DNA of 64,000 nt from Candidatus Omnitrophota bacterium (GCA_030698625.1 JAUYMS010000040.1:21499-85498), one strand, 5' to 3'. Shown: positions 1-22,164, counted from the first letter of the stretch. The notes: generated by a model from the sequence alone, not told the origin. A program made the numbers and translations.

Positions 1-3000
1 CTGAAGGCGCTTCAATTCAAACCTGCAGGAGAGACGGGTAAGGACGCTAACGTTTTGCGCTTCGACGAAGCTGTCTACGATCCGGCCGCCAGAGCAAATT
101 GGCAGAATCTGCTCGTCAATCTCCGGGCCACCCTGAAGGCGGTTAATGAAAATTTTGACGAACAGCTCTCCCGGACGGCGGGTGCGGAGGACGAACATTA
201 CCACCCTCTGCGGCTTACCGATGCACGGCCGGTGCGCGTCCTTCAGAATTTTCTCTCTCAGTACAGCGACAGGATCAATCAGGTCGAGACCGCAAGGCTT
301 TTCATCTTCCTCTTCTCCCGCTATCCCAATGTTTCCGTAGGACGAGTCCGGGAGCTCCTCTTTCCCGGAGGTGAACGAGACCCGATCGAAACCGGGGAGG
401 TCGAACCTCCGAGTGTGGATCCGGCGCCGAGGATCCCAGGCGATGATACGGGCGCTCCGGCTGAGGACACAGGAGATGCTGATGCAGAGCGGAGCGCCCT
501 TGTGCGCGCCAAGATTCCGCCCGAGGCCGTTGAGATCACGGCAGCACTCAATATCGACCAGCGCGATGCCGACGCGAAAGAGCAGATGGAGCAGGTTGTC
601 AGGGAACTCGGCGCGAAGCATAGGGTAAGCGATGAGTACAGCATGCGCGTCCTTAAAGTTAAGGTGCAGGAATTTAACAATCTCGTCACGCACTACATTC
701 CCGAAAATGACGGGCCTCGCCAGGTCTATCTCGAGAGCCACGATGAGGGCAACCTCGAGATCGCTTTTCACAGGGATCCGCTCGAAGGCCCGAACGCGTT
801 GGTCCCGCTCGGGTTTCACATGCATCGCCGGGGCGCGGGTGGAATCGGCACTGAGTCGTGGACCTTTCCGCTGGGCGACCCCACAAATCTGGTGGGGGTC
901 CACATTGTGCCTGAGCCGGACTATAACGGTCACCGGAACATCTACCTGCATTTCCGTGAATTGACTCCGCCCATGATGGAAGTGATCCGGGAATTTGCCA
1001 GGGCACTCGCCTATCTTGAAAAGCGCCGCAGCATTCACACCAAGGACGGGGTTATCCAAATCGAAACTCTCTATACAACCTGGCATATTCTGGCAGACAA
1101 GACACCGGTTTGGAACCCTGAATCACGGCGTCCCGATTTCACGGTTACAGAAGGCTTCAGTCAGGCTCTGACCAAGGCATTGAAGAAACAAAAGGACACA
1201 TGGAAGCGAACGGAAAATAAGAATTCGTATGCTAAATATGTCCCTGAGGACCGTGGCCTGGAAGAAGGTAAAGGGCACTTCGAAGTGATGAAGGATTCCT
1301 GGCATGATGCGCAACTATTCCTTCCCGGATTGTTTTTTGACTTCACCAAGACTGAGAGCGCGACTCGGTTTGGAGCGACACCTGATAGCGGAATCCTTAA
1401 ATGGGAAGTTCGAAAAGAGGATATCCGCGGGGTCAGTCTCAAAAGGACCGATGCGGGCAAAGAGCGGCTGGAACTCTACTTTGATGCCGATGAATTTGAG
1501 ACGTACCGCATTGCGGCCCTGGCCGGCAAGGATTATGACGGCCGGTCGTACGACCGCACGAAGACCGCAGAACATACCGAGATCGACGAGAATGGCGTCA
1601 TCACGGTAACAAGCGATGACGGCGACGAGATCGTGTTTATATTTAATCAAAGTCACACACCAAGATCGGATCGGCGGCTCGCGCCTGTCAGGCGAGGCGG
1701 CCCGCTGCTGACGACACCGGACGAGCTACGGCGTGTGCTCGCACCCTTTGAGGGTTTCAGGGCCGCTGCTGATCTTTTGGAGATCGAGCCCAGTTTCGAA
1801 TACGGCCAGCTGAAGATGAAGCATCGGCTCGGTATTCCGCCACAGGTTGGCGCCACGATCGTGGCTGAAAACGGGAACGTGGTCGGCGGCGAGCTCATGC
1901 TGATTCAAGACGCCCGCGCCGGTGAAATCGTGGGGCCGGCCATTCACACTCAGGGCTTCAAAGGAATCCGCGTTCGCGTTGATGCGGATCCGGAAACGGG
2001 CATCCAGCACAAAGTCATCGAATTCCATTTCTCGGGCTATGTTCTTCCGAGCACCGAAGACCTCGTAAAAATACGCACTCATGCGGCCTTCAAACAGGCC
2101 CTGCTGCTTAAAGGCCAATTCCGCGAGGACGTGCATTATGAAATTCTGGCCGGCAACGATGTCGAATTCCTAAATACGCTTCGAGGCAATGCAGAACCGC
2201 GCGGAAACGAGTCCGTCTCGCCCGCATCTCAAGCGCTTGTCGGTGACCGGCTCGCTTCGGAAGCCGAACCGGCGGGAGAACCAAGAGAAGAATCGCCGCC
2301 TTCTGCGCTGGAACAAAGGGAGCTGCGCGCCGTTTTTGTGGCGGGACGATTTGACGAGTTCCTTGAGCGCGAGAATTCGCCCAAGTTATTGACCGGCCAG
2401 CAGGTGCTTAAAGCACTGCACAAGTTTGTTCGCTCGACCGAATACGAAATCGAACTTGAAGAAGCCGAGGCGATTCTTAAGCATCTCAATGATTCCTATG
2501 CTGCATATCAACTCGAGACAAAGATACTATCTGCCGAAGCGCAGATAGAAAGCGAATGGGCCCCTACTTTCACTGAGGCCCTCGGAGGCAACGCCCTATT
2601 TACTCGATTGAGGACACTGGACTTTTCTGCAACCCTCGATGGGTTGAAAAAATTCTTATCGGCATTCCGGGGTGCGGGCGAGGGCATTATCCAGGTTGAG
2701 GACATTGCCAACTTTGAGGTCTTTACGGGCAAGGTCCTATCGGTCGAGGTCATTAATGAGATCGCGGCCTACGTTAACACGGAAGGCGGATTTACCCTCG
2801 ACGCACAGTTCGCGGATGATGAATTAGATGATTTTGCCCGTGAGTTGAAAGAAACCCTTCAAGATGGCCGGCCTATAAGGCAAAAACTCTTAGTGTATCT
2901 CGATAGTCAGGATGAGTACGGGGAGAACGTAACGGGAACCTGGCCGGGCCCGAATGACCAAGGCACCTTCCGCGCTTATACCGTAACGCAGTTAATCGCG

Positions 3001-4629
3001 GCCCTCATCGAATTCGACCAAGCCAATGACCAATCACTTGACGATATTACTATCGAGGCGCTAGTGCGTGAGTTAAATGCACGAGGCGGGCAACATCGAT
3101 TGCTGCAAACGGCACGCACCCCCGGAGAACTCACCGAATGGGTCGAAGATATTACCACAGCGGTGATTGCGGCGGGCCGCGACAATGGCTTCAGCCCCTT
3201 TGATGATGCCTACGGCTTAGGCGAAGAAGATTTTAGAGTCTTTTGGGAGCAAATCTTTACGGGGTTACAGCGACTAAACTTGCGCACATTAATCGCGGAA
3301 ATCGTCCGCTTTGAAGCCTATACCGGCAATGAACTCCCGGATGAAGCGATCGAAGCTATTATCGCGGGCGCCAATGACCGGAACGGGCGGCTTTTCGTAC
3401 TTGAGCAAATTCTTGATGAACGGGGACTCGGACGCGCGGCGCAGAACGCCAAGCGCGATGTGAAACGGGCCCGGCTTAAGCGTCCGAACACAGACATGCG
3501 TTCCGAACTGAGGAGTGCCGTATTCGATAAGGATGAGCTCGACAGCATGTTCTTTGAAATGCAATACGGCACGGATCAGGGTTTCCTTAGTACGTACAAG
3601 CTGACAGATGCGGATGGCCTGATATTGAGACTGCTGGCTTTGCACGGAGACAAGCTCGACTGGTTTAGCGGAACTATCGAGGTTGTTCGCGGGCCTGTCA
3701 AAAAGGCGGGAGACAACATGTTCCTGCATCTTGATCTTGAGGAGATATTGCGGGAATTCACATTTCAGATAAACGGGAAGAACTCTCACTTCCTTCTGCG
3801 TCAGAGGGGTGAGAAATTTGACGTTGTTTTGAGAGAATCGCTGGTGAACTCTTTCTTGAATGGTTACGCGGCGGGTGACGTGACCGTCGTCGAGGCCTTG
3901 GCCGGCGCTCTTAATGTGGAGGGAACCGAAGCTGCCATTGCGAAGCGTCGATCAGCCCTCATTGAAAGTGCGCAATACGCCAACACCTTGTTCCGGGATC
4001 TTGTGCCGCATATGCGCGCGCGCACTCCCGAGAACCTTGGTGCCGAGCGCTACATGATCGTCTCACAAGACGTTGTGGCTAAGAATATGGGGTTTGCCCG
4101 TACGGCGCGCTTCCTGGCGGGTATGGGCTATCGCCTCTTTGTGCGGCTGAATGAGATGCCTCAGAATGAGCAGGCGATTGAGAACTTCCTTTCTATATAT
4201 CATCTCGAGGGGCTGGCGCGGGAAGACTTCATAACGCCTGTCTACGGTAACGCGGTACAAGTAACAGCGCAGATGCACCGCGCCGGTGTGCGATATCAAT
4301 TGACAGCAGAGAACCTGATCACACTAGGGTTCGATAGCGACGGACTCGCGAATGAATTTGCAGAATACAGCCACCTGGTCTTGGGCGATGAGATATTGGG
4401 CAAACGCCGCGATGCTCGTGCCGATGCACCCACGGCTTTAATCGCGGCATTAATTCTAGAGGCGCCCGTAAAAATCAGAGAACTCGGAGAGGAAATTGTT
4501 ACGGTTACGGATGCAACCCGCCGTTGGGACTTGCACCAATCCCCGGTGGCCTTCGACATGTCGGAGTTTCTGGCCGATGAGGTCGAAAACTATCATCGTT
4601 TGGCAAAGGCTCTCAGCGCTTCGGCGTAA
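1..4629 (+). CDS. Giant acidic hypothetical protein, 5'-partial (more than 1524 aa; the reading frame is open back to window position 1)
   Basis: 4.6-kb uninterrupted ORF. The track start at 55 is a TTG, and the same frame has no stop back to nt 1, so the N-terminus lies upstream of the window. D/E-rich. I see no Walker A, radical-SAM, GT or other motif. Confidence 0.55.
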   Translation: MKALQFKPAGETGKDANVLRFDEAVYDPAARANWQNLLVNLRATLKAVNENFDEQLSRTAGAEDEHYHPLRLTDARPVRVLQNFLSQYSDRINQVETARLFIFLFSRYPNVSVGRVRELLFPGGERDPIETGEVEPPSVDPAPRIPGDDTGAPAEDTGDADAERSALVRAKIPPEAVEITAALNIDQRDADAKEQMEQVVRELGAKHRVSDEYSMRVLKVKVQEFNNLVTHYIPENDGPRQVYLESHDEGNLEIAFHRDPLEGPNALVPLGFHMHRRGAGGIGTESWTFPLGDPTNLVGVHIVPEPDYNGHRNIYLHFRELTPPMMEVIREFARALAYLEKRRSIHTKDGVIQIETLYTTWHILADKTPVWNPESRRPDFTVTEGFSQALTKALKKQKDTWKRTENKNSYAKYVPEDRGLEEGKGHFEVMKDSWHDAQLFLPGLFFDFTKTESATRFGATPDSGILKWEVRKEDIRGVSLKRTDAGKERLELYFDADEFETYRIAALAGKDYDGRSYDRTKTAEHTEIDENGVITVTSDDGDEIVFIFNQSHTPRSDRRLAPVRRGGPLLTTPDELRRVLAPFEGFRAAADLLEIEPSFEYGQLKMKHRLGIPPQVGATIVAENGNVVGGELMLIQDARAGEIVGPAIHTQGFKGIRVRVDADPETGIQHKVIEFHFSGYVLPSTEDLVKIRTHAAFKQALLLKGQFREDVHYEILAGNDVEFLNTLRGNAEPRGNESVSPASQALVGDRLASEAEPAGEPREESPPSALEQRELRAVFVAGRFDEFLERENSPKLLTGQQVLKALHKFVRSTEYEIELEEAEAILKHLNDSYAAYQLETKILSAEAQIESEWAPTFTEALGGNALFTRLRTLDFSATLDGLKKFLSAFRGAGEGIIQVEDIANFEVFTGKVLSVEVINEIAAYVNTEGGFTLDAQFADDELDDFARELKETLQDGRPIRQKLLVYLDSQDEYGENVTGTWPGPNDQGTFRAYTVTQLIAALIEFDQANDQSLDDITIEALVRELNARGGQHRLLQTARTPGELTEWVEDITTAVIAAGRDNGFSPFDDAYGLGEEDFRVFWEQIFTGLQRLNLRTLIAEIVRFEAYTGNELPDEAIEAIIAGANDRNGRLFVLEQILDERGLGRAAQNAKRDVKRARLKRPNTDMRSELRSAVFDKDELDSMFFEMQYGTDQGFLSTYKLTDADGLILRLLALHGDKLDWFSGTIEVVRGPVKKAGDNMFLHLDLEEILREFTFQINGKNSHFLLRQRGEKFDVVLRESLVNSFLNGYAAGDVTVVEALAGALNVEGTEAAIAKRRSALIESAQYANTLFRDLVPHMRARTPENLGAERYMIVSQDVVAKNMGFARTARFLAGMGYRLFVRLNEMPQNEQAIENFLSIYHLEGLAREDFITPVYGNAVQVTAQMHRAGVRYQLTAENLITLGFDSDGLANEFAEYSHLVLGDEILGKRRDARADAPTALIAALILEAPVKIRELGEEIVTVTDATRRWDLHQSPVAFDMSEFLADEVENYHRLAKALSASA

Positions 4630-5479
4630 GCCTCTTGAGCAATTTCATTATTTTCCTGGGCATTTGTGTTTGAGCGGCCTTCCACTTCTTTTCCTCCGGT
4701 GTTGTCTCAACCCAAGCGACATGCCGCTGCATACCTTTATAATGCGGATTGGGGGTCCTGTTTAAGGCATAATAATAAACGGCCAATGAGTTCCTTCTCC
4801 GGCCTTCGGGACAGGTCAATGGCTGCGGGTGCCCATGGTAGGAATACGTTCCCGTATCAAAAATAACGCAGCGATTATAAATCGGCAGAATCCGTTTTTC
4901 GCACTGAGTCGCATCCCGGTTCCATAATTCAAGATGGCCGCCGTACTCTTCACGCCAATCTTTGTTCAAAAATAGAATCAAGTTATAACGCTGATGAATC
5001 ATATCGCCGCTTTTAATGGGATGCCGGTTCGTGTCGGTATGAATCATGAGCTTGCCGCCGCGGCCCGTCGAGTGAAGGCCGCAGCCATTAAAAGAGGGGT
5101 CGACCAGTAAGTCAGTAGCCCTTGTCAAAGACTTGAGGAAGCGAAGGAATGTGCTGGAAATGAGCTGGCCCATAAAATGACGCGTGAAAGGGCCGAATTT
5201 TGCATCATTCGCTACGCCCACCTTCTCAATATTCTTGTCGCCCGTATTTTCGGTCTCGCCGGGCCCCCAGAGTTTCCATTTGATTTGATTGATCGCTGGG
5301 AACTCATCGACGGCAATATCCAGTATTTCAGGAGGCATAAAGTTGTCGATAACGACATGCGGGAAGGGCTTGGCGGATGCGAATTCGTCTCGATACTTGT
5401 CCGCAACTTGCAGCAATTCTTGTGCGTCGAAATAAAAAGCCGGTATCTTTTCCGTAGGAATTGACGTGATTTCAGGCAT
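4613..5479 (-). CDS. 2OG-Fe(II) oxygenase (prolyl-4-hydroxylase-like)
   Basis: HxD...H iron triad: LMIHTDTNRH followed by the distal YSYHGHPQP. Length and layout fit the P4H/PF13640-type fold. It is convergent with ORF1 and overlaps it by 17 nt. Confidence 0.55.
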   Translation of the reverse strand: MPEITSIPTEKIPAFYFDAQELLQVADKYRDEFASAKPFPHVVIDNFMPPEILDIAVDEFPAINQIKWKLWGPGETENTGDKNIEKVGVANDAKFGPFTRHFMGQLISSTFLRFLKSLTRATDLLVDPSFNGCGLHSTGRGGKLMIHTDTNRHPIKSGDMIHQRYNLILFLNKDWREEYGGHLELWNRDATQCEKRILPIYNRCVIFDTGTYSYHGHPQPLTCPEGRRRNSLAVYYYALNRTPNPHYKGMQRHVAWVETTPEEKKWKAAQTQMPRKIMKLLKRLTPKR

Positions 5480-5499: not shown

Positions 5500-6354
5500 A
5501 TGAAGATAAAGCGCAAAGCTCAAAAAATACTCAGAAACTCAGTCAAACAACTGTATAGCACCGCTTCTATTAGGCGGTCTCTCATTCGTTTTGCTGTTGC
5601 CAGGCTAAGCGGGGACTATAGAGCGCGTCTCTATGCGGAGGCATTAGAGCGCCCTCATTACGGGTATTGCGTCTACAATGCGGCACTTCTGGCTAAAAAG
5701 CTCGGGCATAAGCGGATAAGCATTTTAGAATTTGGGGTTGCCGGAGGGGAGGGGTTGCGGAGTCTGGAATATCACGCGACTCAAGTCAGCCGTCTCTTAT
5801 CCATAGAAATCGAGCTCTATGGTTTTGACACAGGCACCGGCTTACCGGACCCTGTGGATTACAGGGATCTTCCATACCACTGGCAGGAGGGGTTCTTTCG
5901 CATGGATGTGGAGAAATTAAAGGGGTCGTTGAAGCGCGCGAAACTAGTCGTCGGCGACATTGCGGATACAGTTAAAACTTTTACCGCGACTTATAACCCT
6001 GCGCCGATTGCCGCAATTATGTTCGATCTCGACTTTTATTCCTCAACGACCGCCTCTTTTGAGATATTCAACATCCCGCGATCTTACTATCTTCCCCGCG
6101 TGTTTTGCTATTTCGACGATGTTCTCGGCGGAAACGTGGAGCTTTACAACAGCTATACGGGAGTCCTTCTGGCGATCAAGGAATTCAACGAGGGCCGGGA
6201 TGAGAAAAAGATAGATCGGGCGCATTACTTGCTGGCTAAGCCGCTGCAGAGTAAATGGTATCGGCAGATCTATGTTTTTCATGATTTTGCGCACGAGTCC
6301 TATAATTCGTTCATTGGAAAGCGAAACCCGCAGCTTTCTCTAAAGCCCGTCTAA
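5500..6354 (+). CDS. TylF/MycF-family (macrocin-O-MT-like) SAM methyltransferase
   Basis: LEFGVAGGEG...YGFDTGTGLPD...FDLDFYSST...FDDV aligns with the tandem TylF-like ORFs at 22169 and 22912 (LEFGV..YGFDTFTGLPE..HIDCDLYSST..FDEY). Confidence 0.55.
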   Translation: MKIKRKAQKILRNSVKQLYSTASIRRSLIRFAVARLSGDYRARLYAEALERPHYGYCVYNAALLAKKLGHKRISILEFGVAGGEGLRSLEYHATQVSRLLSIEIELYGFDTGTGLPDPVDYRDLPYHWQEGFFRMDVEKLKGSLKRAKLVVGDIADTVKTFTATYNPAPIAAIMFDLDFYSSTTASFEIFNIPRSYYLPRVFCYFDDVLGGNVELYNSYTGVLLAIKEFNEGRDEKKIDRAHYLLAKPLQSKWYRQIYVFHDFAHESYNSFIGKRNPQLSLKPV

Positions 6355-7636: not shown

Positions 7637-9622
7637 GTGAAGAAACTCACCATCCAAATGCTGCAACCCAACAGCGCGTACGGCAAGCAGCAGTACCTAC
7701 CTTACAGTGTTGGCATGTTGATATCCTACGTGCAGCAATATCCCGATCTCTACAAAAAGCTCGAATTCCGGCCTCTGCTTTACAAACGTGACAAGGTCGA
7801 ATCGATTGTCGGCCAGATCGGCGAGGTGGATGTGTTGTGTCTGTCGAGCTATATTTGGAATTTTCGTTTAAATATGGCAATCGCTTGTGAAGTGCGCAAG
7901 CGTCAGCCCGGTTGTCTTATTGTTGTGGGCGGACCTCATGTGCCTGACCAAATCGAAGGCTTCTTTGAGCAAAATCCCTTCCTTGATGCGGCCTGTCACC
8001 GCGAGGGGGAAAAGACGTTTTGTCATGTGCTAAAAGCCATTACCAAAGACCAACCCCTCAATAACATTGACGGCCTCTCTTATTACGACCGCGCAACCGG
8101 AGAAATTTTCAAGAACCCCATGCGGACGCGAATCGAACATCTTGACGAAATCCCGTCGCCCTATTTGACCGGAGTTTTTGACCACCTTTTCCGGCCTGAC
8201 AATGATGTCGAGTGGCAGGTGATGTGGGAAACAAACCGCGGATGCCCGTTTACGTGCACCTTTTGTGATTGGGGTTCTGCCATTGCAAGCAAGGTGCGGA
8301 AATTCGGCATGGACCGGCTGCTGGGCGAGATTCAGTGGTTTGCGGATCATCGTGTCAGCTGGGTATTCGGCTGTGACGCCAACTTTGGGATTCTCCCGAG
8401 AGATAAAGAACTTGCGGCGGCGCTAGCTGAAGCCAAAGAGAGAACCGGCTACCCCCACCAGTTCCGAGTGTGCTTCACGAAGAACAGTAACAATCGTGTT
8501 TTTGGCGTCGCCAAGATCCTGCATGACGCTCACATGTCAAAAGGGGTGTCGCTCAGTATGCAGTCTCTCGACAGCGAAACCCTGGCAAACGTGCGGCGCG
8601 ACAACATCAAGCTTGAGGTCTTCCATGAATTGCAGGCCCGTTATCTCGAAGAGGGCGTCGCTACATTCTCCGAGCTCATCATCGGGCTACCCGGCGAAAC
8701 TTATGAGAGCTTCAGAAACGGTCTGGATGTTTTACTCGACCAGGGGCAGCATAGCGGCATCAATATCTATAACTGTTCGGTCATGCCGAACGCCGAAATG
8801 GGAGATCCTGAATATCAGAAAAAATACAAATTACGAATGGTGGATCAGCCGATTTTTCAGGCGCATGCCGCCCGGCTCGCAGATGACGTCATGGTCGAAT
8901 ACGAACCGATTGTGATAGAGACTCACAGCATGACCGTCGCCGACTGGAGGCGCATCTATCACTTTGCTTGGGCGGTGCAGTGCTTTCACTTACTCGGAAG
9001 CCTTCAGGCCGTCAGTGTACTTTTAAGGAATAGGTACGGCGTGCGGTACAGCACTTTTTACGAAGCTGTTATTGAATTCGGGCAGAGAAATCCCGGCAGT
9101 GTTTTGAACAGCGAGATGGGGATACTCGACGGAGTGCTCGATAATATTCTTTCAGGCACGGGCTCAGATCAGTACCTGACGGAGTTTCTCGACATCACCT
9201 GGCCGCCGGAAGAAGCGTCCCATTTGCGTTTTGCAAAGGATATCGACGGCTTTTATCGCGAGTGCCGCCACTTTCTCGATGAGTTTCTCCTTGCGCAAAA
9301 AGTCGACATGCCTGAGGCTTTAAAAGATGATCTTATGCGCTACCAGCAAGCGACCTTAGTGCATTACGATCGCCGGAACGACGTTACTTTAAATCTTAGA
9401 TATAATCTTGATGAGTATATCAAGGGTTGCCGCAAGGGAAATTCTGTAGCCTTCGAAAAAGGAGATTTTAAATACAAAGTAACGGCCACGCATAAACTGG
9501 AGGGTGATGCCGAAAAGTTCGCCCGTGAGGTGGTTTGGTACGGAAGAAAAGGCGGGAAATTCATTTACCCCGTGGAGCGAGTTCATGCGGATGATTTTGC
9601 ATCCATTGGGAGAGGCGTGTAG
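7637..9622 (+). CDS. Cobalamin-binding radical SAM protein (class B, 661 aa)
   Basis: N-terminal B12-binding-like region (VLCLSSY...VVGGPHV), then the CxxxCxxC cluster [16 protein letters not shown] start. About 250 aa of C-terminal extension. Confidence 0.8.
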
Positions 9623-9624
9623 CC

Positions 9625-10062
9625 ATGGGCGCAGACCCAAAAACCGTGTATGTCGCGATGGCCGCGGACATTCTTCACCCCGGTCACATGAATGTGATCA
9701 AAGTTGCCCGGGAATACGGTGATATCGTAATCGGCTTACTCACGGACAAGGCGATCGAGGAATACAAACGGTCGCCATGGATGAAGTACGACGAGCGCAA
9801 AGCGGTCGTAGAAAATATTAAGGGAGTCAGCCGCATTATGGCGCAGGATTCACTGGACTATGTGGCCAACCTGCGGGCGCTCAAGCCCGACTATGTCGTG
9901 CACGGGGATGACTGGAGGAACGGCGTTCAAACTGAAACTCGGCAGAGGGTCATCGATGCGCTTAAGGAATGGGGCGGGAAACTTATCGAAACGCCCTATA
10001 CGGCGGGGATTTCTTCAACCGCCCTTATGGAAAGAATGCGAGCCCGGGCGTCGGCGCTTTAA
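9625..10062 (+). CDS. TagD-like cytidylyltransferase (HxGH nucleotidyltransferase, 145 aa)
   Basis: [10 protein letters not shown] (HxGH), GDDW and GISST resemble glycerol-3-phosphate cytidylyltransferase. The Fom1 cytidylyltransferase domain is of the same family. Confidence 0.7.
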
Positions 10063-11684
10063 TACTTCAGGGCACTCCACTTCTTTTCAGTATAGGCGCG
10101 CGTATCGTTCTTATTGAACTCGTAATTATACTTCGCAGCGAGCTCTGCAATTTCCGTTCCCCTCCACAGCCCCGGGACATCAATCAGGCCCTGTTTATAG
10201 GACATACGGAACAGATTCACTGAAGGATCAATGAACCCTTGGCGCACGCACTCCGTTAAAAGCTCCGAGCCTACGATCGGAACCGCAGCAAAGAAAGACG
10301 CACTGCTAAATTCACACTCCTGAGCAAAACGGTAGGTTGTTGCCATCTCTTCAAGGGTCTCGCCTTCATGCCCGAACATGGGCGGCATGCCGATGATGAA
10401 GTAGCCGTGCACGTGAAGACCGATCTGGCGGGCATATTTTATAAGGTGTTTAGTCTTCTCGAGATCAAGAGGCTTCTTTATGAGCTGGTCAAGGACACGC
10501 TGCACACCGCTCTCGATCGCGAACGTCAGCTGATAGGCACCGGAGGCCACCATCAAATCGAGTAGCTCTTCATCCATTCGCCAGAGCGCCGTGCCTTGCG
10601 GGGTTTGCCAAGGCAGGCCGATCTCCCGAAAAGAACGGAAAAGAATTTTCGCATGTTTCATGTCGTTGGTGATGTTGTCATCCTGAACATGGAACTCATT
10701 GATGCCGTACTGTTCCTTCAGCGCAATGATCTCTTCGACCACGTTCTCGGGACTGCGCCGCCTGAGTTTATTGCCCCAAAAATTGGTCGTGGTGCAAAAG
10801 GTGCAGTGTGCGCTGCATCCGCGGCTCGTGTAAATCTGTGCGACTCGGTCGCCCTTCGTGTAGGGAGACTGATAGGCGCGGTAATCAAAATATTTTTCCA
10901 TGTCATAAAGATGCCACGCGGGAAAGGGGATCTGATCCAATTCAGACCAATTATTCAAATCGTTCTTGGACCGTGAACTTATGAGCACGTTTTCGGAATT
11001 GATCTTGATTTCATCGCCCTGACGAAAAGCGATGCTCCCGATCTTTTCGACATCGTAGTTACCGTTAAGATGTTCGAGATATTGGAGAAACGTCAATTCC
11101 GACTCGCCCAAAAATACGACATCAAGATTAGGATCCGAGAGGCAGGCTTTGGGAAAGTAACGGGCATGAGCGCCGCCAATCGCCGTAACCACCCCGGGCT
11201 TGGCTTGTTTGGCAAGCTTCAGGAGGTTTTGGACATTGTCAGCTTGATTGCTGAAGATGCTTGAGACCCCAACGACGTCAGGGTTGAACTCGCGTATCGC
11301 CTCGATAACCCCTTCATCGTGAAGTCCGTAACTGATGAAGTTTCCCTCCGCATCAATGGGAATACCGTCATTGTAACCCTCAGCAAAAACATCAAGAATT
11401 TTGACGGTGTATTCATGATTCTCCAGCACGGCCGCGATGTAGCCGATGCCGAGGGGATAGGTGCATCTGGGGTAATCGTTTTTGAAGAGGGTCGCGGCCG
11501 GATTAAGAAGGAAGACGCGGTTAAACTTGCGGCGATGGGGGGAAGTTATAGCCTGGGGCATTGTGACCCATTTGCCGACTTTTGGGGTCCCCGGATCAAT
11601 CTCTTGCTTCCCGAGAGACCCCACCGTTAGACGTTGTTCATAACTCATGGTGGGCATTATAGGGATTCCTCGGCTCATTTCCAA
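10059..11684 (-). CDS. Cobalamin-binding radical SAM protein (541 aa)
   Basis: B12-domain-like N-terminus (VVGVSSIF...AIGGAHA), then [14 protein letters not shown] (CxxxCxxC). Its stop overlaps the cytidylyltransferase stop by 4 nt; the two genes are convergent. Confidence 0.8.
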
Positions 11685-11736
11685 GGAGTGTTTTGTAACA
11701 TATTGTTATGAAATGAGTTAGGGGTAGTTTTAAGGC

Positions 11737-11765
11737 TTTGACGGTGTCGCCTATATTCGCTATCA
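11737..11765 (+). promoter_or_regulatory. Sigma70-like promoter TTGACG-17-TATCAT for the pepM operon
   Basis: ttgacg (11737-11742), a 17-nt spacer, then tatcat (11760-11765), inside the 100-bp divergent spacer. Confidence 0.35.
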
Positions 11766-11784
11766 TAGGCACCTATTCCACCGA

Positions 11785-13500
11785 GTGCCGGAGAGGGGCT
11801 ATCGTCCTATAATGAACAGAAAAACCACCCAACTGCGCCAGCTCTTTTCGCGGGGCGGCATCATCCGCGTTATGGGAGCGCACGACGGTTTAGGTGCGCG
11901 CCTCATCGAGCGCAATGGTTTCGATGCCGTCTGGTCGAGCGGACTGGAAATCTCCACAGCGCATGCACTCCCCGACGCCAATCTCCTAACCATGACTGAG
12001 AATCTGGCTGCAGCACAAGGCATTAACGATGCCACCCATCTACCCGTCATCTGCGATTGCGATACCGGATACGGCAACTCAACCAATGTCATGCACATGG
12101 TTAAGAAATACGAAGCTGCCGGACTGGCGGCCGTCGTGATTGAAGATAAACGTTTTCCTAAAATAAACAGCTTTATTCCCGGCAGACAGGAACTTGCAGG
12201 GATCCATGAATTCGCAGGCAAACTTCAGGCGGCAAAGAGCGTTCAAAATGATCCTGATTTTATGGTCATTGCGCGCACCGAAGCGCTCATCGCCGGATGG
12301 GGAATGGATGAGGCATTGCGGCGCGCGATTGCCTACGAGCAGGCGGGCGCGGATGCGATTGTCATTCATTCCCGGTCCCGCATGCCGGACGAAGTCTATG
12401 AATTTGCTTCTAAGTGGAAGGGGTCGGTTCCCTTGATCGCCATCCCCACGATGTATCCCGATGTGACCGCAGCTCAACTTGAAGCCGCCGGTTACGGCAT
12501 GGTCATCTATGCCAATCACGGTCTACGGGCATCGATACGCGCCATGGATGAAGTCATGCGACTGATTGCGGAAACGGGATCTTTGACCGCCGTTGAGGGA
12601 AAGATCGCCGGGATGGATGAGGTTTTTGAAATTCAGCGTATGACTGCCATGCGGGAAGACGAGAAGAGATTTACGGGAAGGGAGTCGTTAAATGCTGTGA
12701 TCCCGGCGGCCGGCAATCACGCCCTCGAATCCGATTTGGGAGATGTCCTCGGAGACAAACCCGTTTGCATGCTGAATGTCGGCGCCAAAACACTCATTGA
12801 CCGGCAGACGGATCTATTGCGCTCGGCGGGAGTCAGCGACATTTGGATCGTGGGCGGTCATCAGCATGACAAAATCCGCTCCGATGGTTCTCATATCATT
12901 CACAATCCCCGATACGACACTTGTCATAATGCCTACTCACTGATGCAGGCCGAAGCGCATATGGGGACACGATGCGTCGTGGCTTATTCGGATATCATTT
13001 ATGATCGCCAAATTCTTAATCATCTGCTCATGAGTCCGCATGACATTACACTCGTTATGGATCGTGCGTATCAGACGCTTCCGGCGCGAGATAAAAAACA
13101 TGATTTGGTGATCGCAGAAAATTCATCCGTGGGGTTTGAGTCGCGGCGGCTCGACGCCAGTCTCTTCCTTCCGGTGCGCCGTATCGGAAAGGAACTCGAC
13201 AAGGCTCGGGCCAATTATGAATTCATCGGACTGGCCTTATTTCAGGGGCAGGGCATTCATGAACTGCGAGCGGCCTGGCGTGACGCACTATCGAAATTCC
13301 GGGACAAGCAGTTTAACGAGGCCCCCTCGGCCGAAAAGGCTAGTTTGCCGGACCTGATTCAGTATCTCATTGAACGCGGTGCCGGCGTGTATGGCATGCA
13401 GATTGAGCACGGCTGGTCCGAGATTCAATCGAAAGAGGACTACCGCCGCGTAGACTCTTATTTTCAGCCGTCTTCGGCTCAGCCGTCTCAAGTCGTATGA
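11785..13500 (+). CDS. pepM: Phosphoenolpyruvate phosphomutase fused to a C-terminal nucleotidyltransferase domain
   Basis: PepM signature VVIEDKRFPKINSF (EDKxxxxxNS) and the isocitrate-lyase/PEP-mutase fold motifs in aa 1-290. Aa ~300-571 has VIPAAG...GDKP...VGG, an NTP-transferase-like fold. An alternative start is the ATG at 11812 (MNRKTTQLRQLF). Confidence 0.85.
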   Translation: MPERGYRPIMNRKTTQLRQLFSRGGIIRVMGAHDGLGARLIERNGFDAVWSSGLEISTAHALPDANLLTMTENLAAAQGINDATHLPVICDCDTGYGNSTNVMHMVKKYEAAGLAAVVIEDKRFPKINSFIPGRQELAGIHEFAGKLQAAKSVQNDPDFMVIARTEALIAGWGMDEALRRAIAYEQAGADAIVIHSRSRMPDEVYEFASKWKGSVPLIAIPTMYPDVTAAQLEAAGYGMVIYANHGLRASIRAMDEVMRLIAETGSLTAVEGKIAGMDEVFEIQRMTAMREDEKRFTGRESLNAVIPAAGNHALESDLGDVLGDKPVCMLNVGAKTLIDRQTDLLRSAGVSDIWIVGGHQHDKIRSDGSHIIHNPRYDTCHNAYSLMQAEAHMGTRCVVAYSDIIYDRQILNHLLMSPHDITLVMDRAYQTLPARDKKHDLVIAENSSVGFESRRLDASLFLPVRRIGKELDKARANYEFIGLALFQGQGIHELRAAWRDALSKFRDKQFNEAPSAEKASLPDLIQYLIERGAGVYGMQIEHGWSEIQSKEDYRRVDSYFQPSSAQPSQVV

Positions 13501-14606
13501 TCGAATCCGGCACGTTCGTGCAACAACTCAAGAATGAAGGTTTTCGTTTTTTTACGGGCGTGCCTTGTTCCTTCTTTCAATCTGCGATCAACGCTGTGGT
13601 TGACGACAAGTCTTTGAAGTATGTCACCGTACCAAACGAAGGCGCGGCCTTGGCTGCGGCATCGGGCGCCATACTTGCCGGAGAACCCGCTGTAGTCCTA
13701 ATTCAGAACTCCGGTTTTGGCAATTTGATCAACCCGCTGACATCGCTGAATATGATTTATGGGCTGGGTGTTCTTATATTTATCAGCGGGCGCGCCTATG
13801 GCGTCGCCGATGAACCGCAACACGAAATTATCGGTAAGTCTATGGCAGGAATGCTCGACGCGATGGGTGTTGCTTTCGAAGACCTGCCTTCCGAGCCCGA
13901 GGCGCTACGGTCTGCTTTGGGACGTGCGCACCTGTGGATCCGGAACGAAAAGCAGCCCTTTGTTTTCTTTGTGCGCAAGGACACCCTTTTGGAATACGCC
14001 GGGCCATCCGGCAAAGACGTCTACCCGCTAAAACGAATTGATGCCATAAAGATCATTGCGGAATCGATAGGGGACAATGACTATGTCGTTGCGACCACGG
14101 GCAAGCCGTCACGCGAACTCTTCAAGATCAAGGATAGGGTCCGCAATTTTTACATGCAGGGTTCCATGGGGCATGCGGCGGCAATTGGTTTGGGGGCTGC
14201 ACTCAGTCGTCCGGATGAGAGGATTATCGTCCTGGACGGTGACGGCGCCATTTTGATGCACCTCGGTATCCTCTCTTCGATTGGGCATTACCGGCCAAAG
14301 AACTTCTATCATATTGTTCTCGACAACGAGGCTTACGAATCAACGGGCGGCCAAGATACGACCTCTGCCTCCTCCGATTTGTGCGCTGTGGCGCATGCAT
14401 GCGGCTATGTTTGGACTAAAGAAACGTCTACAGCAGATGAGTTAAAGCGCAGCCTTGAAGAGCTCAAAGGAATTGAAGGGCCGTGTTTTTTAAGAGTTAA
14501 GATCAACCGTATTGCTACACCCGATGTCCCGCGCATATCGGGAAAGCACAGTTCACGTGATATCGCCTCGCATTTCTCCGAAGAACTGGCCAGGGGGCGC
14601 ACTTGA
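13497..14606 (+). CDS. ppd: Phosphonopyruvate decarboxylase (ThDP-dependent)
   Basis: 369 aa. ThDP motif LDGDGAILMHLG...NEAYESTGGQ. ATGA overlap with pepM. pepM-ppd synteny is canonical. Confidence 0.8.
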   Translation: MIESGTFVQQLKNEGFRFFTGVPCSFFQSAINAVVDDKSLKYVTVPNEGAALAAASGAILAGEPAVVLIQNSGFGNLINPLTSLNMIYGLGVLIFISGRAYGVADEPQHEIIGKSMAGMLDAMGVAFEDLPSEPEALRSALGRAHLWIRNEKQPFVFFVRKDTLLEYAGPSGKDVYPLKRIDAIKIIAESIGDNDYVVATTGKPSRELFKIKDRVRNFYMQGSMGHAAAIGLGAALSRPDERIIVLDGDGAILMHLGILSSIGHYRPKNFYHIVLDNEAYESTGGQDTTSASSDLCAVAHACGYVWTKETSTADELKRSLEELKGIEGPCFLRVKINRIATPDVPRISGKHSSRDIASHFSEELARGRT

Positions 14607-15739
14607 GTTGCGCTTACTGGAATCCTACGCGCCGTCTCATAGAAGAAGGTGCCCTCGACAAACTGGCTGAAGAACTATCAGCTTCCGGTGCCGCAAAGGT
14701 ATTGGTCGTGCTCGGCGAAAAATCATTTCGTAAGTCGATTCGCTACACAAAACTGCGCGATACGTTGGAACACTTTTCCCTTGTCGAATCTGAGCCCGTC
14801 GTCAAAGACCCTTCACTGGTATTCGCACAGTCATTTGCCGAAAAGTATCGCGGCAAGGCTATTGATAGCGTCGTGGCAATTGGCGGGGGCAGCGTCATGG
14901 ATATGGCGAAACTGACGGCGCTCCTGCTCAATCAGCCGGATGACACGTGGAACACTTTTTGGCGTGATCCGGTGGTACCGATTGAGTTTCCAAATGCGTC
15001 ACTCCCGCTCGTCGCGGTTCCTACAACGGCGGGCACGGGGAGCGAAGTCACTCAATACGCCTCTTTTGAGGATCACCAGCATCAAAAGATGAGCTTTGCT
15101 CACCCTTATCTTTTCCCAAAGCTTGCGCTCGTGGATCCTGAATTGGCCGTTTCGATGCCGCCTGCGATTACGGCCTCGACAGGATTTGACGCACTATCGC
15201 AAGCGATCGAGGCCTATTGGTCCATCCATCATATGCCTTCCTCAGACACCCATGCACTGCGGGCTATCCCGTTGGTTTTAGAACAGCTTCAGCGTGCCGT
15301 CGAAAAACCTGCCGATAGGGATGCTCGTTTCGCCATGGCAATTGCAGGCAACGAGGGGGGCCTAGCCATCGCACAGACACGGACGACAGCAGTTCATTCG
15401 GTTTCTTATCCCATGACGACGATATTTCACGTGCCGCATGGCCACGCTTGCGCCTTGACGCTTGCCTCATTCGTACGGTTCAACCAGGATGCGATTGAGC
15501 ACGAGCGAGCCGCCGCACTTTGGAGAGCTCTCGGGGCGGAGAACGCTGAAATGGCCGCTAAGCACATTGAGGGCCTTATGGATAATGTCGGACTCGAGCG
15601 CCGACTGAGTCAAGTAGGCATTGATGAGGAAGGACTGGAGTCCATTGTAAAATATGGGTTTAGACCGGATCGTGTAAAGAATAACCCAAGAGAACTCAAT
15701 GCCTCTCAATTAAGAACAATGCTTGTGGAAATTCTTTGA
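14603..15739 (+). CDS. Iron-containing alcohol dehydrogenase (phosphonoacetaldehyde reductase candidate, FomC/PhpC-like)
   Basis: Fe-ADH family: GGGSVMDMAKL. Positioned directly after ppd. TTG start overlaps the ppd stop. Confidence 0.7.
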   Translation: MSCAYWNPTRRLIEEGALDKLAEELSASGAAKVLVVLGEKSFRKSIRYTKLRDTLEHFSLVESEPVVKDPSLVFAQSFAEKYRGKAIDSVVAIGGGSVMDMAKLTALLLNQPDDTWNTFWRDPVVPIEFPNASLPLVAVPTTAGTGSEVTQYASFEDHQHQKMSFAHPYLFPKLALVDPELAVSMPPAITASTGFDALSQAIEAYWSIHHMPSSDTHALRAIPLVLEQLQRAVEKPADRDARFAMAIAGNEGGLAIAQTRTTAVHSVSYPMTTIFHVPHGHACALTLASFVRFNQDAIEHERAAALWRALGAENAEMAAKHIEGLMDNVGLERRLSQVGIDEEGLESIVKYGFRPDRVKNNPRELNASQLRTMLVEIL

Positions 15740-15746
15740 CGCGAAA

Positions 15747-15773
15747 CATGTCTTCAAGTCGAGACTTGACCCC
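15747..15773 (+). repeat. REP-like hairpin element, copy 2
   Basis: catgtcttcaagtcgagacttgacccc, 8 nt after the ADH stop. Identical to the copy at 22142. Confidence 0.6.
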
Positions 15774-15838
15774 TCGTGATTTTTCGCTAGACTATACGAA
15801 ATCTTCAGTTATGGCGACTGGAACCGATATAAAGAGAT

Positions 15839-17377
15839 ATGACTAAGAGCGCTGAAAAACCTACGATTTGCCTGATTATACCCCCGTCGATTTTTCTGTT
15901 GGACGAGCGGGTCTTCATTAGCGTCGGCATTCTCAAGATTGCGGCGGTTCTAGAGAGGGAACATTACCCTGTGGACGTGCTAGACCTCTCGGGCGTTGAA
16001 AACTATGAAGCCGTTATTGAAGACCACATTAATAACAGCCCGGCCCGAATCTTTGGCGTTACGTCGACAACCCCGCAAATGCCGGCTACCGCGAGAATCG
16101 CAAGGCTAATTCGTAAGCTCGTTCCTGAAGGCAGATTGATTCTTGGCGGACCTCACGCAACGTTGGTCCATTCTGCTTTCAAGAAGGAAAGCATCGAAGG
16201 GAAAAAGGGGCGGGGAACAGTTGCTATGGATAGCATTCTAGCACTCTATGACGTTGCCGTAGTCGGTGACGGTGAAGACGCCATCTTTGAAGCCATTGCT
16301 GAAAATCCGTCGCAGATCGTGGACGCAAATGACCGCACATCCAGGCTTTTTTTGACTAACCAAAGATATGACAGCCTTCCGTTTCCCGCGCGCCATCTCA
16401 TCGATATCGACAGCTATCATTATTTTATAGAGGGACATCGCACGACAAGCCTTATTGCTCAGCTTGGCTGCCCCTTTGAATGCGGTTTCTGCGGGGGACG
16501 GCAATCGCCGATGTTGAGAAATATCCGTATGCGCAGTATGGACAGCATCATTGAAGAGATGCGGCACATCCATGTCACCTACGGGCATACCGGATTCATG
16601 TTTCACGATGACGAACTTAATGTGAATCCGAAAATGATCGAGCTTATGACCAAAATCGTTGACCTGCAAAAGGAACTCGGGGTTGATTTTCGGCTTCGCG
16701 GGTTTGTTAAAGCGGAACTCTTCAATGACCGGCAGGCGGAAGTGATGATGAAGGCCGGTTTCCGCTGGCTCCTGACCGGTTTTGAATCGGGAGACCGCAG
16801 GATCTTGACGAATATTAACAAAAAGGCGACCCGTGAAGACAATTCGCGCGCCGTACAGATCGCCAAAAAACAGGGCCTTAAAGTTAAAGCGCTTATGTCT
16901 ATCGGGCATCCCGGCGAAAGCGAAGAGTCCGTCATGGCCACACGCGACTGGCTACTTGAAGCAGAACCGGAGGATTTTGACGTCACCATTATTACCACTT
17001 ATCCGGGCACGCCTTATTATGATTTTGCCGTACCGCATCCGGAAAAACATGGGATCTGGGTCTACACCTACAAGAAAACAGGGGACAAGCTCTACAGCCT
17101 TGAAGTCGATTACAATGAAGTAGCCGATTACTACAAAGGAGATCCTGACGGCGGCTATAAATCGTATGTGTATACCGACCACTTGAGTCAGAATGACCTG
17201 GTCGATTTGCGTGATTTTGTAGAAAGAGATGTTCGGGATCGCCTTGAAATTCCTTTCTACGCTGGTTCGCCCAGCATCCGCTATGAGCACTCTATGGGCC
17301 AATTCGGCAAACAGCTCCCGCCCAATATCCTAAGGCGTTCCGGCGGGGGTGCCCATGAAAAGCTGCCCGTCAGTTAG
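15839..17377 (+). CDS. Cobalamin-binding radical SAM protein (512 aa; Fom3-like methyltransferase candidate)
   Basis: N-terminal B12-binding-like region (FGVTSTTP...ILGGPHA), then GCPFECGFCGG (CxxxCxxC). Size matches class B radical-SAM methyltransferases. Confidence 0.8.
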   Translation: MTKSAEKPTICLIIPPSIFLLDERVFISVGILKIAAVLEREHYPVDVLDLSGVENYEAVIEDHINNSPARIFGVTSTTPQMPATARIARLIRKLVPEGRLILGGPHATLVHSAFKKESIEGKKGRGTVAMDSILALYDVAVVGDGEDAIFEAIAENPSQIVDANDRTSRLFLTNQRYDSLPFPARHLIDIDSYHYFIEGHRTTSLIAQLGCPFECGFCGGRQSPMLRNIRMRSMDSIIEEMRHIHVTYGHTGFMFHDDELNVNPKMIELMTKIVDLQKELGVDFRLRGFVKAELFNDRQAEVMMKAGFRWLLTGFESGDRRILTNINKKATREDNSRAVQIAKKQGLKVKALMSIGHPGESEESVMATRDWLLEAEPEDFDVTIITTYPGTPYYDFAVPHPEKHGIWVYTYKKTGDKLYSLEVDYNEVADYYKGDPDGGYKSYVYTDHLSQNDLVDLRDFVERDVRDRLEIPFYAGSPSIRYEHSMGQFGKQLPPNILRRSGGGAHEKLPVS

Positions 17378-21177: not shown

Positions 21178-22164
21178 ATGGCTCGTCCACTCCGTATTGA
21201 ATTCGAAAATGCCTGGTATCACGTTATGAACCGGGGCCGGAATCACATGGACATCTTCCGGGGTGAGCACGATTACCGCGTATTTCTTGAGATTCTGACG
21301 GAGGCATGCGGCCTCTTTAACGTACAGATTGCGTCTTACTGCTTGATGTCCAATCATTACCATCTGCTGATTCATACCCCTGAGGCAAATCTTTCGCGTT
21401 TTATGCGGCATATCGACGGGGTCTATACGCAGAAATACAACCGGTCTTATCAAAAAGACGGATCTTTGTTTAAGGGGCGTTACCGTGCCGTTGTATTACA
21501 GGTTGAAAGCTATCTGTTGCGCGTCATGCGTTACATCCATCTGAATCCGGTGCAGGCGCGCATTGTCCATGATCCTACAGATTATCCCTGGTCGAGTCAT
21601 CGCGACTATATTTCAGTCAACGGCCACCCGAGTTGGCTGCTTGTAGGTTTTATCCTTAATCAATTCTCTTCGCAATCGCACCTAGCCGCAGAAGCTTACA
21701 ATCAATTCATTACGGCAGGCATTGACAGTGAGACAGAGAAATTTTACTCGCAGGTAAAACTAAAACCAATTTATGCGGATGCCACGCGAACGGCGGAAAT
21801 TAAAGAAAAGTATCTCGCTCCAAATACCCGTGAGGTGGCTGAAATCCCTGAGAGACGCAAGATCCGCGGAGAGCAAATGGCGAGCCATATCCTGCGGGCA
21901 GTTTCACAAAACTTCAGCGTAGCAGCTGCCGGCATCAAGTCATCACGGCGAGGTAAGGAAAACCTGCCGCGTCAGATGGCGATCGCCCTTGCAAGGGAGC
22001 TTTCAGGAATGACGCATCGCCAAATCGCCGATTTTTTTAATATTAACTCCTACAAAACCGTCAATAAACATTGCGATCGCTTTGCGAGCAAGATTCGCGT
22101 CAGCGACGAACTGAGTGAACAGTACAAGCAACTGAGATCAACATGTCTTCAAGTCGAGACTTGA
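21178..22164 (+). CDS. IS200/IS605-like Y1 (HuH) transposase, REP-associated (RAYT-type), with C-terminal DnaA-C-like HTH
   Basis: HuH motif SNHYHLLIH, then YIHLNPV...YPWSS (catalytic Y region). The C-terminal ~100 aa (MAIALARELSGMTHRQIADFFN...NKHCDRF) resembles the DnaA C-terminal DNA-binding domain. Confidence 0.75.
   Translation: MARPLRIEFENAWYHVMNRGRNHMDIFRGEHDYRVFLEILTEACGLFNVQIASYCLMSNHYHLLIHTPEANLSRFMRHIDGVYTQKYNRSYQKDGSLFKGRYRAVVLQVESYLLRVMRYIHLNPVQARIVHDPTDYPWSSHRDYISVNGHPSWLLVGFILNQFSSQSHLAAEAYNQFITAGIDSETEKFYSQVKLKPIYADATRTAEIKEKYLAPNTREVAEIPERRKIRGEQMASHILRAVSQNFSVAAAGIKSSRRGKENLPRQMAIALARELSGMTHRQIADFFNINSYKTVNKHCDRFASKIRVSDELSEQYKQLRSTCLQVET

Follow-up and report, generated by a model that had tools for sequence, protein, structure and literature searches.

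A rare family of long, cysteine-avoiding proteins in Candidatus Omnitrophota with a shared C-terminal module of predicted HAD-like fold

What kind of protein is encoded by a reading frame of more than 1500 codons that runs off the edge of its contig segment and resembles nothing in the domain libraries? The question is raised by a 64,000-nucleotide stretch of DNA from a Candidatus Omnitrophota bacterium (GCA_030698625.1 JAUYMS010000040.1:21499-85498), called here the window, which opens inside such a frame. Omnitrophota are ultra-small, host-dependent or predatory bacteria, and their very long proteins, which are thought to mediate cell contact, are almost uncharacterized. A first-pass annotation of the window described an acidic protein with no recognizable domain and suggested that it may be surface or adhesin-like, or structural, or else part of a larger system. 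We find that the frame is the 3' part of one genuine gene of Candidatus Omnitrophota. The product of this gene is soluble, is built of modules and has at least 1704 amino acids; judging by sequence comparison, it is a member of a rare family that lacks annotation and has so far been found in Omnitrophota alone. What defines this family is a C-terminal module together with an RSE[LVMIA]R motif, helical modules present in subsets of the members, one shared beta-rich domain type, avoidance of cysteine and lack of transmembrane helices.

The open reading frame (ORF) occupies forward frame 1 from position 1 to 4626, with 1542 codons free of stops, and is closed by TAA at 4627-4629; as had been noted, it is long, uninterrupted and open to nucleotide 1 (an ORF caller, which begins at the first start codon, gives 55..4629 only). 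The true protein is indeed larger: the Logan contig SRR13727534_194988 (L001, 6621 nt), reached via the exact protein of the adjoining 2-oxoglutarate (2OG)-Fe(II) oxygenase, is 100% identical to the window across 6135 nt and adds 162 codons to the frame, which is still open at its 5' end and has no start there. Codon-usage log-odds, scored after training on Pfam-supported neighbouring genes, are +0.26 overall in frame 1 and 0.22-0.31 in each 600-nt segment of the ORF, and they are negative in frames 2 and 3. The GC content at third codon positions, 0.60, equals that of the neighbours. Because the coding score is positive in frame 1 only and even along the ORF, and third-position GC is that of the neighbouring genes, the ORF is a real, native, single coding region. 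Self-BLASTP of the protein detected no internal repeats, and no convincing terminator was seen 3' of the stop codon.

It is extremely improbable that the ORF is an artefact, that is, a frame open by chance, a pseudogene, or a fusion of several genes produced by errors of assembly or sequencing. The window and the Logan contig may share reads, in which case their identity is not independent confirmation, but neither the 1542 stop-free codons nor the confinement of an even coding signal to frame 1 is expected of such a frame. Moreover, the C-terminal module is kept at 25-42% identity among relatives from JGI/IMG, NCBI and Logan records. Fusion through sequencing errors or frameshifts, a doubt voiced in the first-pass annotation, has left no sign, as the coding signal is uniform and the same module order recurs inside single ORFs of independent contigs.

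The family and its C-terminal module

Searches of Pfam, NCBIfam, PDB sequences, PHROGs and PADLOC gave nothing significant for the protein, so the earlier impression of a chain without recognizable domains holds for sequence libraries, and the suggestion that it is part of something undescribed fits its place in an unannotated family. A word-indexed protein search with the whole 1542-aa query found no match, and the same search with profile A1, and likewise with A2, found only one relative, P0018. Scans of genome, metagenome and viral contig collections with the single window protein revealed no related locus; a contig scan with the narrower profile A3 revealed four. An exhaustive phmmer comparison of window residues 343-1542 with 1.84 billion cluster representatives recovered 22 relatives (E 2.8e-40 to 1e-5). 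In 21 of these 22 the best-scoring stretch stops at residue 1194-1200 of the 1200-residue query, and in 20 of 22 the match reaches the relative's own C-terminus, so that the region in common is approximately the last 400 aa. Family members range from 0.45 to more than 5.7 thousand amino acids (kaa), and include proteins of 5704, 5155, 2863, 2005, 1785 and 1651 aa. All taxon-labelled relatives (P0005, P0016, P0019, P0011 and locus L002) are Candidatus Omnitrophota, as is the source metagenome-assembled genome of the window protein. An origin in phages or plasmids was considered and set aside, with no tblastn match in phage and plasmid collections and no PHROG or PADLOC hit.

The C-terminal module spans about 375 aa at the extreme C-terminus and consists of a beta-rich N-terminal lobe, a Rossmannoid core of HAD fold and a terminal helix. 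Alignment A1 contains the conserved blocks NPVKKPGDNMFLHLD, FxxNG...IRESL, VIxKNYGIARxI and FYxxYHL, further on LVLxDDVLG....KRADYPVLLLAA and W.LHQTP, and finally the terminal helix ending in ...NYQAxAxxLx[ST/A]AA. In the AlphaFold2 (AF2) model, the core, which lies in the last ~170 aa, is predicted to be a three-layer alpha/beta Rossmannoid with HAD topology; the predicted local distance difference test score (pLDDT) is 88-97 over the core and mostly 50-83 over the N-terminal lobe. In structure comparison, a route recommended in the first-pass annotation, Foldseek against PDB gave no hit below 1e-3, and the HAD-like core is the sole fold resemblance. No remote homology to a helicase or NACHT-like family, which the first-pass annotation had named as a possible refutation, was found, and a PDB profile search returned nothing relevant.

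The residues of this core depart from those of HAD enzymes. The end of core strand 1, the motif I position as taken from DSSP of the AF2 model, is occupied by T (12) or S (6) in all 18 sequences, and 13 of these 18 have E or D at +2; the window copy has S, with D at +2. No member has the DxD of motif I (DxDx[TV]). As, on this placement, [ST]-x-[DE] stands where HAD enzymes have D-x-D, the canonical aspartyl-phosphate mechanism is impossible for a core of this kind. In the motif IV region, the window copy reads LVLGDE and most relatives LVLxDD, and the acids are absent in P0003 (HRN), P0016 (EPQ) and others. An R-A-D-x-P motif, invariant or nearly so, is found 8-10 residues beyond this region, and the invariant polar residues are N224, R335 and D337 in the numbering of the model. 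With E allowed up to 5, none of twenty module sequences matched a Pfam model of HAD proteins. Since motif I is absent, motif IV is variable and HAD profiles are silent, the core is, on its predicted structure, HAD-like in fold and non-canonical, and not a canonical HAD phosphatase.

The tail of the module is constrained up to the last residue, which is Ala in 21 of 22 sequences; the penultimate one is A or S (19/19), and an N-Y pair lies 11 residues from the end. This resembles the E. coli ssrA tag, AANDENYALAA, a resemblance that is a lead only. The tail might accordingly be a built-in degron, presenting the protein C-terminus first to a ClpXP-type or tail-specific protease, with regulation by proteolysis and not export. 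We regard this as quite unlikely: the tail is predicted to close a long helix that packs against the module, and not to form a free peptide, constitutive breakdown of such large proteins would be costly, and neither the window nor loci L002-L009 contain a tmRNA gene whose tag could be compared.

The module can stand alone, because P0009 (L009, 6106-7464) is a separate gene for 452 aa, little more than the C-terminal module, and is preceded by an in-frame stop and by two hairpins that resemble terminators. At ~400 aa, and occurring as a gene in its own right, the module should be expressible and offers a practical experimental way into the family.

Regions upstream of the module are shared by subsets of the members and keep the same order. 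In the helical region that precedes the module, window residues 990-1122 match P0019 residues 2588-2728, and window residues 1068-1156 match P0015 residues 168-260. A domain made of a beta-meander and helices and ending in 'ITL..GDE..LIF' is common to L002/P0019, P0001 and P0016; iterated hidden Markov models (HMMs) find only a few copies of it, and it is the sole beta-rich type matched between members. A helical central module with the pattern ...DRID....LF...F.SR....V..LLFP was found by iterated HMM in L002/P0019, P0002, P0012, P0023 and, partly, P0001. In the window protein this module straddles nucleotide 1, beginning 66 aa before the window at aa 96 of the L001 protein, and hence the protein continues further upstream; the relatives have 445 to 2690 residues ahead of this module.

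The RSE[LVMIA]R motif occurs 14 times in the 30,930 residues of the family, against 0.22 expected (~60-fold). Ten of the 14 copies are just upstream of the C-terminal module, ~20-60 residues before it, and copies are also seen between modules (P0001 at 2134, 2205 and 5315; P0023 at 1470, 1531 and 3192). The motif lies in a segment of the AF2 model with pLDDT below 50 and is probably part of a disordered linker; the motif may serve as a cleavage or docking site.

Several members carry additions of their own. In P0019, P0002, P0012, P0016 and P0011, Pfam recognizes nothing except a methyltransferase (P0002) and DUF7055 (P0012). The former is a class I S-adenosylmethionine (SAM)-dependent methyltransferase at residues 1349-1437, inserted between RSELR and the C-terminal module in this member only. 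P0015 has three in-frame copies of GVWPYAPT at different places of the C-terminal module (~310-520), and P0016 and P0011 have ATSDQRRATSD-like peptides. These peptides have the look of a short repeated DNA element inserted in frame, in loops that tolerate it. In L001, L006 and L007, the family gene runs off the contig start or begins within 14 nt of the first base, and the P0001 gene starts ~65 nt into its contig, a pattern suggesting that the variable 5' part of these genes is prone to assembly breaks, through repeats or strain-level hypervariability.

Cysteine avoidance and the possible site of action

The 1704-aa protein contains 16.1% D+E and 11.5% K+R, with an isoelectric point (pI) of 5.0. 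It had been called acidic, which is correct, although only mildly so next to the 9-14% D+E of most neighbouring proteins. A stronger trait, unremarked in the earlier account, is the avoidance of cysteine. There is none in 1704 residues, where ~22 would be expected at the 1.31% seen in 49 neighbouring ORFs (19,001 residues), and in the family as a whole 27 of 30,930 residues are cysteines (0.087%), against 0.8-1.4% in the genes flanking the relatives. Methionine is also low in the family. In all eight scanned members of at least 912 aa, up to 5704 aa, the maximal Kyte-Doolittle hydropathy over 19 residues does not exceed 1.73, and no credible transmembrane helix was found in any of them. Members with a known N-terminus show no signal peptide, the N-termini of the complete P0016 and the stand-alone P0009 being polar. 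S-layer proteins and type I-secreted lipases have been described as acidic and without cysteine (PMC3034196), a background against which cysteine avoidance may be read as a sign of export.

Our preferred reading, to which we give a probability of about 0.4, is that the C-terminal module is a handle for binding, recognition or processing, attached to a variable cysteine-free body that works outside the cytoplasm. As a handle, the module would attach to a phosphorylated ligand or partner, or be recognized by machinery of export, assembly or processing, possibly with cleavage at RSExR. The body, deployed outside the cytoplasm, would be the fast-evolving part of the protein and could plausibly take part in cell-surface or host contact of these host-dependent ultra-small bacteria. 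The original suggestion of a surface, adhesin-like or structural protein may hold: it would fit the extreme avoidance of cysteine, the mild acidity and the rapid divergence of the beta-rich modules, but no signal peptide, anchor, adhesin fold or secretion genes were found.

Several observations weigh against this reading. Export is only inferred: neither a signal peptide nor an anchor motif was found in the proteins, and RTX repeats and an adhesin fold are likewise absent. The sole ATP-binding cassette (ABC) exporter in the window is HepA/MsbA-like and is encoded 49 kb away, inside a lipopolysaccharide (LPS) locus. Residues of the set LDAVTSIF, a crude proxy for a type I secretion signal, make up 0.60 of the last 50 aa and 0.53 +/- 0.07 of such segments along the whole chain, so that the tail is not set apart. 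The [ST]-x-[DE] assignment comes from position in a predicted strand rather than from superposition on a HAD structure, gene neighbourhoods are not conserved, and the true N-terminus of the window protein lies beyond the recovered sequence. Finally, the well-folded 375-aa module, its stand-alone copy next to a family 4 glycosyltransferase (GT4) and the P0002 methyltransferase fit a role in the cytoplasm equally well.

The last point leads to an alternative that is quite possible, if short of an even chance, in which the family consists of cytoplasmic scaffolds or multi-domain enzymes. The module would then be either an active rewired hydrolase or transferase, using a Ser/Thr nucleophile or chemistry of the RAD motif, or a sensor of nucleotides or phospho-sugars, the body would organize partners, and cysteine avoidance would have some other cause. 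The lack of signal peptides and transmembrane helices in complete members would be natural for such proteins, as would an enzyme-like Rossmannoid fold with invariant N, R and D residues, a class I methyltransferase domain in one relative and the sugar-nucleotide genes that adjoin both L005 and the window copy. Other long Omnitrophota proteins, moreover, commonly contain HAD and methyltransferase domains (10.64898/2026.06.07.730766). Less easily explained on these terms are the 13-fold depletion of cysteine over the whole family, atypical of cytoplasmic enzymes encoded on the same contigs, and the state of the putative active site, with canonical motif I absent in all members, motif IV acids not conserved and no Pfam HAD match.

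Layout of the window protein and its gene surroundings

The segments of the window protein are listed in Table 1, together with the neighbouring genes discussed below. The two acidic linkers were read from the sequence, and a similar low-complexity stretch follows the central module in relatives too. Within the helical region before the C-terminal module there is a recurring pattern of ~90 aa, seen by eye and without a statistical test.

Table 1. Segments of the window protein and selected downstream genes (positions in the window)
Feature	Coordinates	Strand	Remarks
3' 4.6 kb of one gene	1..4629	+	1542 aa + TAA; N-terminus outside the window
Helical central module (~200 aa), C-terminal two-thirds	1..366	+	...DRINQVETARLFIFLFS...RELLFP; iterated HMM
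Acidic, Pro-rich linker, probably disordered	367..495	+	GGERDPIETGEVEPPSVDPAPRIPGDDTGAPAEDTGDADAERS; read from sequence
Family-specific domain, one copy	1126..1677	+	N-terminal helix, beta-meander, helix, terminal 'ITvtsddGDEivFIF' strand pair
Second acidic linker, Pro/Ser-rich	2191..2316	+	AEPRGNESVSPASQ...EESPPSALEQ; read from sequence
Helical region before the C-terminal module	2317..3495	+	...LIAEIVRFEAYTGNELPDEAIEAII...; matches P0019, P0015
Linker motif RSELR	3499..3513	+	family pattern RSE[LVMIA]R
C-terminal module, N-terminal lobe	3535..4047	+	blocks GPVKKaGDNMFLHLD, FxINGk....vlRESL; alignment A1
C-terminal module, Rossmannoid core, predicted HAD-like fold	4048..4545	+	family-invariant blocks N-x-G, F.x.Y.L, R-A-D-x-P, W, P
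C-terminal amphipathic helix and conserved tail	4552..4626	+	...EVENYHRLAKALSASA-COOH; family ...NYQAxAxxLx[ST/A]AA
2OG-Fe(II) oxygenase, convergent	4613-5479	minus	overlaps the end of the large ORF by 17 nt
B12-binding radical-SAM enzyme, flanking the phosphonate set	7637-9622
B12-binding radical-SAM enzyme, flanking the phosphonate set	10059-11684	minus
Phosphoenolpyruvate (PEP) mutase fused to NTP-transferase domain	11785-13500
Phosphonopyruvate decarboxylase	13497-14606
Iron-containing alcohol dehydrogenase (Fe-ADH)	14603-15739
B12-binding radical-SAM enzyme, flanking the phosphonate set	15839-17377

A convergent 2OG oxygenase followed by a glycan locus had been reported downstream of the large ORF, and both are there. 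The oxygenase has weak NCBIfam similarity to the peptide-modifying YhhC (E 1.6e-6, far below the cut-off). It was not found beside the relatives, and a functional link between it and the large protein is therefore unsupported. Beyond it are found GDP-mannose 4,6-dehydratase, three B12-radical-SAM enzymes, a phosphonate set, many glycosyl-, methyl- and sulfotransferases, Wzm/Wzt, an O-antigen-ligase-like protein and the HepA/MsbA-like exporter; the region is a large locus of LPS/O-antigen type. The set at 7637-17377 suggests decoration of the O-antigen or glycan with a methylated phosphonate.

The glycan locus has other unusual genes. In its middle, at 21178-22164, an IS200-like Y1 transposase domain is fused to a DnaA C-terminal helix-turn-helix domain, and is preceded by ~750 nt without an ORF of at least 200 aa. 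At 31846-33543, Glyco_transf_15 (glycolipid 2-alpha-mannosyltransferase), a mainly fungal family, is fused to Methyltransf_24, and other fusions of glycosyltransferase and methyltransferase are encoded at 25480-27747, 34236-35900 and 49210-50763. On the minus strand, opposite to most of the locus, 51523-56687 has an operon-like arrangement of an unannotated 370-aa protein, the ABC exporter (best NCBIfam hit HepA, 463 bits against a cut-off of 725), an Elm1-like protein and a methyltransferase. The window as a whole has no Rfam family and no tRNA.

Gene neighbours are different at every relative's locus that was compared. They include AbiE toxin-antitoxin genes in one setting, UDP-glucose dehydrogenase and an epimerase in another, and elsewhere AAA_16, HIT, HD-GYP, OmpA and Mur ligases, or complex I; the stand-alone P0009 is located downstream of GT4 and upstream of toxin-antitoxin genes. 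Two genes without annotation, one in the window (5500-6354) and one in L005, are unrelated to each other. As the neighbourhoods differ in every locus, a conserved gene neighbourhood is rejected and there is no evidence for a dedicated multi-gene system. The idea of a system whose remainder lies upstream is unsupported on both counts, for the upstream sequence, which the first-pass annotation had advised retrieving, turned out in L001 to be more of the same gene.

Comparison with known systems

The predicted core of the family shares Rossmannoid HAD topology with the HAD superfamily, in particular its capless C0 members such as the KDO-8-P phosphatase YrbI and MDP-1, but no HAD model matches it at the profile level. 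In place of the nucleophile motif DxDx[TV] of those enzymes the family has [ST]-x-[DE], and the strand that bears their motif IV acids, not conserved in the family, is followed by R-A-D-x-P. In addition, the family core has a beta-rich lobe before it and a conserved helix and tail after it. If the module is a true cytoplasmic pseudo-phosphatase, it stands for a new, if modest, family of domains.

Type I-secreted and S-layer proteins, such as HlyA and RsaA, are similarly large, acidic and free of cysteine, and have no N-terminal signal peptide, which is also the case in the family wherever the N-terminus is known. On sequence composition alone, acidic and without cysteine, the window protein is like S-layer proteins, which are in addition very abundant and self-assembling and carry a signal peptide or a type I secretion signal. 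The HlyA tail, ...ITLTASA (PMC3417381), may be compared with ...ALSASA of the window protein, an unprocessed-looking C-terminus with small residues. Differences are as clear: the window protein has no RTX GGxGxD repeats (no HemolysinCabind/RTX hit, and none visible in the translation), no HlyB/HlyD-type pair is encoded within the window, and the uncleaved, unstructured C-terminal signal of ~60 aa by which ABC/MFP/OMP exporters recognize type I substrates contrasts with a large folded domain in the family. The pI is 3.2-4.9 in 90% of RTX proteins (PMC3034196) and 5.0 in the window protein. As for genomic setting, the large gene adjoins an O-antigen locus, and the Caulobacter S-layer gene is likewise a neighbour of O-antigen genes.

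By analogy, the combination of a variable body with a conserved C-terminal domain, common to proteins that otherwise look unrelated, is reminiscent of the C-terminal domain (CTD) of type IX secretion. That CTD is a beta-sandwich of ~80 aa, found in Bacteroidota on proteins with Sec signal peptides. The family module, by contrast, has ~375 aa and an alpha/beta fold, on proteins without a signal peptide. A more specific and rather unlikely version of the export idea would make the module, with its beta-lobe, rewired HAD fold, RSExR and -SAA tail, the signature of a Sec-independent targeting or processing pathway of Omnitrophota, that is, a sorting or assembly domain with the logic of the type IX CTD, recognized by machinery of its own and perhaps cleaved at RSExR, which would send cysteine-free proteins of 2 to >6 kaa to the surface or into host or prey cells. 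If the module were a true sorting signal, it would stand for a new secretion logic.

The closest parallel by phylum is with the published giant proteins of Omnitrophota. These comprise Archaeovorin-type and Dockerin-type proteins, with many transmembrane helices (West-Roberts et al. 2023, 10.1101/2023.11.21.568195), and a catalogue of proteins of at least 10 kaa (Nielsen & Lui 2026, 10.64898/2026.06.07.730766). The published giants exceed 10-30 kaa, and ~94% of them carry a transmembrane helix or a signal peptide; SecA_DEAD, C39, dockerin, TSP3 or enzyme domains are present in many (10.1101/2023.11.21.568195; 10.64898/2026.06.07.730766). Cysteine content goes unmentioned in both papers, as does any conserved module at the C-terminus (10.1101/2023.11.21.568195; 10.64898/2026.06.07.730766).

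Could the window protein be a fragment of such a giant, membrane-anchored and equipped with SecA_DEAD? It comes from the same phylum, its gene runs off the window, and the contigs of its relatives break inside these genes. Yet no transmembrane helices are present in 1704 aa, nor in the relatives of 5704 and 5155 aa, in contrast to the many found in the published classes (10.1101/2023.11.21.568195), and P0016 is annotated as complete at only 1785 aa. The Archaeovorin type combines SecA_DEAD with glycosyltransferase, glycoside hydrolase, peptidase or NUDIX domains, none of which was found in the window protein (checked from the L001 start onward) or in five scanned relatives, and these proteins give no hits to the dockerin and TSP3 repeats of the Dockerin type. 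We hold this origin to be very unlikely.

The family and the giants nevertheless have much in common, as both are very long, multi-modular, largely invisible to Pfam and fast-diverging, and often break assemblies. What distinguishes the family is a size of 0.45 to >5.7 kaa, below the cut-offs of both studies, the lack of transmembrane helices, near-absence of cysteine and a C-terminal module of its own. It may be seen as a variant of the long proteins already known from Omnitrophota, or as a separate class among them, soluble, cysteine-avoiding and mid-to-large in size.

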